A program made the translations under genes and the position numbers. The notes below the pieces were generated by a model. The model saw only the letters and a program-made list of their open reading frames with translations. It was not told the origin of the DNA and searched no databases. DNA of 64,000 bases from an uncultured Acidobacteriota bacterium (GTDB taxonomy: Bacteria > Acidobacteriota > UBA6911). The stretch is from the NCBI GenBank assembly GCA_963843575.1, contig CAWJKZ010000019.1, positions 464,907-528,906 on the forward strand, read 5' to 3'. Positions within the stretch are counted from its first letter, which is position 1; every line of letters begins with the position of its first letter. Positions 62,352 through 63,450 of the stretch are shown one piece after another.

Positions 62352-63450
62352 CTACCAGGCGCCTTGGCCGGAGATTACGGCCAGGGGGGTTTTGGCAAGG
62401 ATTTTCACGTCCAGCCAGAGGGATTGGTGCTGGATGTAGCGGAGGTCGAGGCGGACCATCTCGTCGAACGTCGTCCGGCTGCGGCCTTCGACCTGCCAGA
62501 GGCCGGTGATGCCGGGCTTCACTTCTATTACTCGGCGGCGGTGCCAGTGGCGGTAGTTGGCCACCTCGTAAGGGACCGGGGGGCGTGGGCCCACCAGCGA
62601 CATGTCGCCCTTGATCACGTTCACCAGCTGCGGGAGTTCGTCCAGGCTGCTCTTGCGCAGGAAGCGGCCCACGGGTGTCACCCGCGGGTCGTCCTGGATC
62701 TTGTAGGTGGGTTGCGCCACCTGGTTTTCAATCAGGTTTTTCACAAACTGCTCGTGGATGGCCGGGTCGTTGTTCACCTTCATGGTGCGGAATTTCAGGA
62801 ACCAGAACTCCCGGCCGAAGCGCCCCAGGCGGCGCTGTTTGAACAGGACGGGTCCGTCCGAGGTCAGCTTGATCAGGGGGGCGACGACGAGAAGAACAGG
62901 CGCAAAGAGGACCAGGCCGACGAGGCTGCCGGCTACGTCGATCACGCGCTTCAGAAACAGATAGGGGGCCTTGGATTTGTCGCGATCCTTCAGGTCGGGG
63001 TAGAGGTCCCGGTCCGTTTTGGATTCGTCTTCGGGGAAGAAGTGGAATGAAACCGCGATCTGCCTGAGCTGCTCAGGCTTGAACACTTCGCCCAGGGCGC
63101 GCTCCGTCTTCGCCATCAGCGCGGTCTGCACCGCGGAACGCTCGGCGCCGCGCAGGGCGGTGTAGATGGCTCCCAGGGCGCCAGGGGACCGATACCAGCC
63201 GTAGACGTCCGTCTCGCGGCTGTCCAGGCGCAACGCGGCAGAGATGTCCGCAACGCGCGGCGGCAAGGTGCTGCCGTTGAGGGAGGCCAGGTCCATGATC
63301 ATCAAAACAAAAGGGTCCCCGGTCCGCTCGGTGCGGCGCCTCTCGAGCGCAAGCGTCCGATTAAATGCTTCCTGATCGAGTAGTAAGTTTGGCTCTTGCA
63401 CGGGATTTGGAAGTTTGATCGGGTTGGGTAACGCGCGGCCGGCCGATCAT
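62352..63450 (-). CDS. Priming phosphoglycosyltransferase with N-terminal degenerate GGDEF-like domain
   Basis: [49 protein letters not shown] starts at GTG 63401, likely true ATG at 63450 via an indel. Confidence 0.9.

Follow-up and report, generated by a model that had tools for sequence, protein, structure and literature searches.

The PelD protein of Pseudomonas aeruginosa exerts post-translational control over polysaccharide output through a membrane-tethered GGDEF-like domain that lacks the catalytic motif of diguanylate cyclases and binds cyclic di-guanosine monophosphate (c-di-GMP). It is a separate subunit with transmembrane and GAF domains. Described here is a gene from an uncultured Acidobacteriota bacterium, found in a 64,000-nucleotide window of contig CAWJKZ010000019.1 (the window being the whole stretch of DNA that was analysed), in which a domain of this kind, with no GAF, is fused to the priming phosphoglycosyl transferase (PGT) of what appears to be a Wzx/Wzy-type exopolysaccharide (EPS) locus, whereas the PelD pathway is synthase-type. 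Binding of c-di-GMP is proven for PelD and only predicted for the Acidobacteriota protein. In PelD, R367, D370 and R402 are each reported to be needed for c-di-GMP binding and for pellicle formation, with R402 lying 32 residues beyond D370 (PMC2170427).

The I-site of the cyclases themselves is described as a set of four residues. [quoted passage not shown] A similar arrangement is seen in the modelled dimer of the present protein, which pairs helix 0 of one copy with the RxxD of its partner. PleD and WspR, however, are active enzymes in which the I-site inhibits catalysis, while here the output would be the attached transferase.

Accessory domains are also known on PGTs. WbaP carries an N-terminal, cytoplasmic and non-catalytic domain (PF13727, a domain of unknown function) on the same catalytic core, and this domain is reported to sense uridine monophosphate (UMP), to inhibit the enzyme and to stabilise its dimer (PMC10312794). 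It differs from the domain described here in fold and in ligand, and is preceded by a four-helix transmembrane bundle. Post-translational control of Wzx/Wzy-type priming PGTs has been described for phosphorylated EpsW acting on EpsZ in Myxococcus and for CapB acting on CapM in S. aureus (PMC12802240); CapM belongs to the small PGTs, and phosphorylation on tyrosine activates it (PMC12802240, PMC10312794). In both cases control is exerted by a protein separate from the PGT, in one a response regulator and in the other a tyrosine kinase, and no second messenger binds the PGT. In Caulobacter crescentus the holdfast pathway is Wzx/Wzy-like, and its glycosyltransferase HfsJ, which is not known to carry a GGDEF-like domain, acts later than a PGT. 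c-di-GMP is reported to bind and activate HfsJ at this early lipid-linked step (PMC9980756).

A sequence-only reading of this window had held that c-di-GMP control of polysaccharides is known mainly for synthase-type systems. The same view is taken in a 2025 paper, in which such control is described as well worked out for synthase-type systems and post-translational control of Wzx/Wzy pathways as incompletely understood (PMC12802240). The priming transferase is a logical control point, since it draws on scarce undecaprenyl phosphate. If a c-di-GMP sensor is indeed fused to it, the messenger would act directly on the first step of surface polysaccharide synthesis, and the question of Wzx/Wzy control would become testable with a single protein. 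Literature searches, which did not cover the census of monotopic PGT (monoPGT) fusions (O'Toole et al. 2021), returned no account of a PGT that bears a GGDEF-like domain, and neither "GGDEF" nor "diguanylate" occurs in the text of a 2024 PNAS paper on monoPGT annotation; fusions of small monoPGTs to regulatory domains, receiver domains included, are mentioned in a citing passage. Degenerate GGDEF I-site receptors, of which B. subtilis and M. xanthus apparently provide further examples, and regulatory accessory domains of PGTs are both known kinds, combined here in one protein.

A GGDEF-fold domain fused to a priming transferase

The fusion gene occupies positions 62352..63401 of the window on the minus strand, where all features of the gene given below also lie, and encodes 349 amino acids from a GTG start. 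Along the protein, a degenerate GGDEF domain of about 125 residues is followed by an LYPDL linker, a re-entrant helix and a monotopic PGT core of the PglC/WbaP type. AlphaFold2 (AF2) returns a confident two-domain model of the full-length protein, with a predicted local distance difference test score (pLDDT) of 89.6 and a predicted template modelling score (pTM) of 0.80. The N-terminal domain (N-domain; residues 10-125, 63027..63374) was also modelled by itself, from an alignment of the window's domain with 62 short relatives (A2), giving a pLDDT of 86 and a pTM of 0.76. Its elements are a helix at 10-27 (helix 0), a strand at 31-37, a helix at 46-59, strands at 66-71 and 75-80, a helix at 88-106 and a final strand at 116-122. 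When this model was searched against the PDB with Foldseek, 34 matches were obtained at E≤1e-3 and all 36 of the rows listed were GGDEF or diguanylate-cyclase entries, the best being 6khu (E 1.2e-5, TM-scores 0.64/0.72). In this count, 3bre was classed as GGDEF from the literature rather than from its entry title, and 4wxw and 8wcn, whose titles did not supply the class, were presumed to be GGDEF structures. A profile of the same alignment, run against PDB sequences, produced 11 weak matches (E 0.06-1.6), eight of them to GGDEF proteins and the other three to two ParA-type chains and a proteasome-lid homolog. The printed profile alignments place the family's ReTD on the RxxD of 7e6g and 5llw.

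Compared with the cyclases, the domain lacks about six residues in the stretch that joins strand 1 to the helix preceding RxxD, where those enzymes have their GTP-binding segment. The hairpin that should carry GG(D/E)EF is altered as well. P0057, a relative closer to the canonical family, aligns with 6d9m from the N-terminal GGDEF motif through RxxD to the GGDEF hairpin, and this HMMER alignment, mapped onto the window protein, puts the equivalent of GGDEF at R71-(S72)-P73-G74-A75-L76 (63174..63191), where the translation shows the catalytic motif to be lost. Conservation was assessed in the best 150 of 1242 relatives, found without a word or motif filter by an exhaustive HMMER search over 1.84 billion representatives. 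Position 71 is variable among these 150 (K in 66, R in 30, E in 19, others in the rest), as is the remainder of the former catalytic hairpin. With both the hairpin motif and the GTP-binding segment lost, the domain cannot make c-di-GMP.

Sequence profiles recover this relationship only weakly. PF00990 is matched weakly by 12 of the 150 relatives (E 2.4e-5 to 6.5e-3, at a threshold of E≤0.01), and one of them, P0073, exceeds the gathering score of 23.8 with 24.6 bits; the window's own N-domain fails the curated score yet has the GGDEF fold. Residues 1-150 alone yielded just DUF6765 in Pfam (E 0.015), no family in NCBIfam, and only ClpP and a DnaJ homolog in a phmmer search of the PDB (E above 0.5). 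An Atlas search returned only clusters of "hypothetical protein" (0.89-0.90; Acidobacteriota and Nitrospirota); GGDEF is found on 13% of the members of the rank-13 cluster, which serves as a lead only. The N-domain is almost certainly a degenerate GGDEF fold that retains I-site residues and is attached to a priming transferase. The sequence-only reading, in which a GGDEF-like domain without its catalytic motif had been recognised, is thereby upheld by the modelled cyclase fold, to which every listed Foldseek row belongs, and by the variable RSPGAL hairpin. The two segments that it quoted are present in the translation (residues 13-38 and 62-75), its RETD is encoded at 63218..63207, and its estimate of some 120 residues ahead of the membrane helix agrees with the 125-145 found.

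The enzyme part looks intact. PF02397 covers residues 151-343 (62373..62951; E 5.6e-68, 228 bits against a cut-off of 27) and is the sole Pfam domain found, while among PDB entries a profile of 17 relatives matches WbaP (E 2.9e-66) and PglC (E 7.8e-43). A second search listed 120 full-length relatives, among which the residues of the D254-E255 dyad (62637..62642) are each conserved in 120 of 120. So is P168, which breaks the re-entrant membrane helix (residues 145-180, 62862..62969) into AF2 helices 145-165 and 167-180. The roles of the Asp-Glu dyad and of the proline-broken re-entrant helix are known from work on PglC. Ahead of the helix, the linker motif L133-Y134-P135-D136-L137 (62991..63005) is nearly as constant (Y134 in 120, P135 in 119 and D136 in 117 of the 120); the motif, with its invariant Y134, may serve for phosphorylation or lie at the membrane interface, and a tyrosine-autokinase-like gene is a frequent neighbour. 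The best NCBIfam models are those of large PGTs, of which only the C-terminal half is matched; TIGR03025 is covered over positions 253-444 of its 445, with 292.4 bits and below its cut-off of 295.55. Pfam gives no PF13727 match in the window protein, so that the pairing of a four-helix transmembrane bundle with PF13727 that defines large monoPGTs is absent. TIGR03013, the model for XrtA/PEP-CTERM-associated sugar transferases, scores 154.6 bits, below its cut-off of 393.35.

The extent of the N-domain depends on the start codon. The reading frame is open from 63446, and the first ATG, GTG or TTG within it is the GTG at 63401. This start is favoured because residues 13-33 are conserved in relatives. 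The sequence-only reading had begun the gene at 63450, which is incorrect: the ATG there is in another frame, at a distance of 49 bases from the GTG, and shares bases with the TGA stop (63449..63447) of an upstream 84-residue open reading frame (ORF). A database copy of the window protein, P0002, is 316 residues long and begins at M34, a start that would remove the conserved helix 0 with its ER(R/K)RxER motif. Automatic start calls of this sort may hide the N-domain in some records.

The family is large, with 1242 representative clusters at E≤0.001 (339 at E≤1e-10) and at least 509 genome loci. Acidobacteriota are a dominant soil phylum, and their exopolysaccharides matter for soil aggregation and for survival of desiccation. 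The loci were obtained by scanning one genome per species of GTDB with a five-sequence alignment (A4), and 80 were kept. All 80 belong to Acidobacteriota (Terriglobia and relatives), at no more than 44% identity to the window domain. In each of the 78 that could be assessed, the N-domain is followed by a transferase core, the remaining two running off their contigs; the fusion of the two is obligate. In 6 of the 80, a stop or a frameshift breaks the fusion gene. A Pfam scan of the best 150 relatives detected PF02397 in 46. Most of the others are short, and one, P0019, visibly ends within the membrane helix; many of these are probably truncated gene calls. Source annotations give the relatives names such as "sugar transferase" and "polyprenyl glycosylphosphotransferase". 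No precomputed Pfam domain other than PF02397 is recorded for any of the 120 full-length relatives listed, so Pfam-based censuses of PGT fusions probably miss the N-domain. The only confident extra domains, besides PF02397 and the weak PF00990 matches, occur in P0158 (905 residues), where an amino-acid kinase and ACT domains precede the N-domain and PF02397. The protein is either genuinely fused to an aspartokinase-like sensor or the product of a faulty gene call. P0089 (1644 residues, nine matched stretches) shows odd Pfam matches that are apparently low-complexity artefacts, and P0049, P0097, P0120 and P0143 show isolated weak matches to unrelated families, all but one below cut-off.

Candidate I-site residues and the modelled dimer

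Four conserved elements of the N-domain stand out. The motif E20-R21-R22-R23-T24-E25-R26 of helix 0 (63324..63344) is a candidate source of the trans-acting arginine of a secondary I-site, or alternatively a dimer contact. R62-E63-T64-D65 (63207..63218) occupies the I-site position and aligns with the RxxD of 7e6g, 5llw and 6d9m. G68-W69-Y70 (63192..63200) is nearly invariant and aligns with the residues just before GGDEF in 6d9m. On the helix that follows strand 3, the conserved basic residue K98 (63108..63110) is a candidate third I-site residue. Among the 150 relatives, helix 0 retains F13 in 142, E20 in 148, R21 in 139, R23 in 147 and R26 in 145; R62 and D65 are each kept in 148; and position 98 is basic in 146, split evenly between K (73) and R (73). 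G68 and W69, at 149 each, are the most conserved residues of the domain, followed in the motif by Y70 at 136; possible roles of this G-W pair are packing against the transferase core and stacking on a base. Elsewhere, L33 (146), G77 (143), P123 (141) and H120 (124) are also frequent, and a K or R stands at position 29 in 99. In the 120 full-length relatives, E20, R21, R23, R26, R62, T64, D65, G68, W69 and K/R98 are each present in every sequence. The motif count of 80/80 in the kept loci is circular, the search patterns having contained RxxD..GWY and RTERT, and was not used.

A lone R..D tetrad is estimated to occur by chance in about half of all 150-residue stretches. RxxD is beyond chance here because its position in the GGDEF fold and its conservation in both sets of relatives are taken together. 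K98 lies 33 residues beyond D65, a spacing one residue longer than that between D370 and R402 of PelD. From the pattern of conservation, RxxD (R62 and D65), K/R98 and the helix-0 arginines R23 and R26 are candidates for kept I-site elements, with a putative trans-acting arginine at helix 0. The sequence-only reading had been right about the place of RxxD, and the conservation in homologs that it asked to be checked was borne out, beside a catalytic motif that varies; the exact spacing that it saw between RxxD and GGDEF proved only approximate, with a one-residue insertion in the hairpin (P0057 against 6d9m, HMMER).

A homodimer was modelled from two copies of residues 1-135, using alignment A2 and with two c-di-GMP molecules included, whose placement was not scored. 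The interface score ipSAE is 0.49 in the median run, against 0.24 for the best control. Of the proteins used for calibration, 20 of the 30 solved as one-chain pairs attained this mark, as did 1 of the 23 solved as single chains; the set held no ligands and did not use alignment A2. The runs share at least 94% of their contacts, with a partner pLDDT no lower than 83. A symmetric interface is formed, with residues 12, 15-16, 19, 22-23 and 25-27 of one copy facing 62-64, 66, 81-82 and 84 of the other, and the lowest-error contacts join 62-64 to 22-26 of the partner copy. As modelled, helix 0 set against the partner's RETD gives the dimer the geometry of I-site-crosslinked GGDEF dimers.

Tandem forms exist in which two N-domains precede a single transferase core (P0021, P0022 and P0023), and all six copies keep RxxD..GW. 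This arrangement fits a paired N-domain unit. The first copy in P0022 is without R21, E25 and R26 of helix 0 and has kept its RxxD, a pattern to be expected of a pseudo-dimer in which one of the two symmetric sites is decaying.

Proposed ligand gating and its alternatives

In the proposed mechanism, the priming enzyme of a Wzx/Wzy-type EPS locus would be a small monoPGT with a catalytically dead GGDEF domain as its cytoplasmic N-terminus. c-di-GMP, probably as an intercalated dimer, would bind where RxxD/K98 of one N-domain faces helix 0 of another. The bound ligand would then fix the N-domain dimer and change the activity of the attached transferase cores, with activation as the favoured direction by analogy with other EPS systems. 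Of the explanations considered, c-di-GMP binding by the domain with gating of initiation accounts best for the data, and its chances are judged to be about even. A fuller claim would extend this switch to the whole Acidobacteriota family of priming transferases. In it, a c-di-GMP dimer bridging RxxD/K98 and the partner's helix-0 arginines would dimerise a "small" monoPGT and gate the first committed, undecaprenyl-phosphate-consuming step, making this the first second-messenger receptor built into a PGT; that claim is tentative and somewhat unlikely to hold in full. Gated initiation had already been suggested by the sequence-only reading. The GGDEF fold and the conserved RxxD speak for it, as do the I-site-like geometry of the modelled dimer, the tandem N-domains, the constant attachment to a transferase core and the precedent that WbaP sets for a domain on a PGT that both senses a nucleotide and stabilises a dimer (PMC10312794). 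The dimer model also brings with it an alternative that needs no ligand.

Several observations weigh against ligand gating. No PF00990 match is found in Pfam at E≤10 for the window protein or for residues 1-150 alone, and PelD is absent from the 36 Foldseek rows listed. In a single pairwise HMMER alignment to 6d9m, the canonical third arginine maps to window position 94, which is non-basic (A in 47 and T in 42 of the 150 relatives). K/R98 lies one helical turn farther along on the same helical face, an equivalence drawn from that one pairwise alignment and the spacing. A local diguanylate cyclase was rejected as a partner, since none of the window's six reading frames holds a GG[DE]EF ORF and the 80 loci have none within 6 kb. 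The pass of the dimer model may stem from the model's memory of solved GGDEF dimers, c-di-GMP-crosslinked ones among them. Canonical I-sites are not known to require conserved "x" positions, and both are conserved here (E/D63 in 143/150, T64 in 139/150), which hints at protein contact. Furthermore, RETD and the partner's helix-0 arginines touch directly in the dimer model, where E20, E25, E63 and D65 could pair with R21, R23, R26 and R62 as inter-subunit salt bridges, so that the conservation may be explained with no ligand at all. Small monoPGTs, finally, are reported to function as monomers (PMC12802240).

These contacts lend substance to a ligand-independent scaffold, in which the dead GGDEF domain would hold two cores together or keep the enzyme in an export complex, and ER(K/R)RxER and R(E/D)TD would form reciprocal salt bridges across the two-fold axis. 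Such a scaffold is consistent with a dimer that passes its controls through direct protein contact, with the conserved "xx" of RxxD, with the tandem N-domains and with the dimer-stabilising accessory domain of WbaP (PMC10312794). The free interchange of K and R at position 98, a residue not named in the modelled interface, fits ligand charge better than packing. RxxD, moreover, is not known to be required for the GGDEF fold, and the monomeric function reported for small monoPGTs counts against a dimerisation scaffold no less than against gating; on balance this explanation is considered unlikely. Less probable again is that the basic patch senses another anion: UMP or UDP, a UDP-sugar (as feedback), another cyclic dinucleotide, (p)ppGpp, undecaprenyl phosphate or an anionic membrane lipid. 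The WbaP accessory domain, which senses UMP and inhibits its enzyme, sets a precedent (PMC10312794). Conserved basic residues are indeed numerous (R21, K/R22, R23, R26, R62, K/R98 and, in 99 of 150, K/R29), and the N-domain adjoins the membrane-embedded core in the full-length model. Against this, the conserved residues occupy the c-di-GMP I-site positions of the fold, its GTP or substrate site is deleted, and no computed result points to another ligand.

The domain might instead be a docking module or substrate for the tyrosine autokinase of the locus, with a GGDEF-like fold as platform and phosphorylation at, for example, Y134 or Y70. A ParA/MinD-like gene of the tyrosine-autokinase type lies directly upstream in 10 of 13 sampled loci, one such gene is present in the window, Y134 is invariant in the full-length relatives, and CapM offers a phosphorylated example (PMC12802240, PMC10312794). 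Gene neighbourhood is the sole link between kinase and domain, however, and such a role would not account for the conservation seen at RxxD, K/R98 and helix 0; this reading is very improbable. As for a still-active diguanylate cyclase, which the GGDEF fold by itself might suggest, the variable RSPGAL in place of GG(D/E)EF, the gap of about six residues at the GTP-binding segment and the missing PF00990 match led to its rejection, with next to no chance left to it.

The surrounding locus

The fusion gene is the first in the window's run of minus-strand genes. It is followed by a GFO/IDH/MocA oxidoreductase (best NCBIfam match UDP-GlcNAc 3-dehydrogenase), a hexapeptide acetyltransferase, a DegT aminotransferase and a Wza-like exporter. 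Further along are a chain-length determinant, a PEP-CTERM-type ATPase, a tyrosine-autokinase-like protein and a nucleotide-sugar dehydrogenase, and the window also holds Wzy- and MatE-like fragments and enzymes of glycosyltransferase family 2 (GT2). The best NCBIfam matches of the neighbours are PEP-CTERM-locus models, all below cut-off. This gene set fits a Wzx/Wzy-type EPS locus.

A recurrent order is seen in related loci, whose neighbours were scanned with Pfam in 13 of the 80 (45 ORFs). A Wzz-like gene, an AAA_22 ATPase and the ParA/MinD-like, kinase-type gene precede the fusion gene, which is followed by a GFO/IDH/MocA oxidoreductase and then by an acetyl- or formyl-transferase or a DegT aminotransferase. 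The ParA/MinD-like gene is named as the direct upstream neighbour in L001, L002, L004, L009, L012, L015, L021, L024 and L044, and it is not in that position in L005, L006 and L032; L043 was unscanned there. L012 belongs to Acidobacterium sp. S8, a relative that can be cultured. In the window itself, the 84-residue ORF directly upstream of the fusion gene (63447..63701, minus strand) looks ribbon-helix-helix-like by eye, with NikA-like (E 0.002) and DUF3232 (E 1.3e-4) matches that are both below cut-off. It was rejected as a conserved partner, with no homolog among the ORFs of the 80 related loci. The ORF is specific to the arrangement of this genome and may be a local transcriptional regulator.

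Several genes of the window look split or fused. The DegT aminotransferase is divided between two overlapping ORFs (59492..60705, minus strand) that match Pfam positions 20-110 and 120-359. At 40789..41969 and 47668..50925, both on the minus strand, an epimerase in two ORFs is found along with a Wzy_C fragment and MatE fragments, one of these joined to a GT2 domain. Such breaks reflect either indel errors in the assembly or a decaying locus. Upstream of the polysaccharide region, a hybrid histidine kinase of 929 residues with PAS and receiver domains (14595..17381, minus strand) is a possible regulator of the locus. Inside the region, 32656..37804 (minus strand) holds two FemAB/GNAT-like genes, a methyltransferase and an ATP-grasp gene, a set that resembles those of EPS loci of the PEP-CTERM type. 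General observation of the window turned up no exosortase. In the related locus L005, an exosortase fragment lies directly upstream of the fusion gene.

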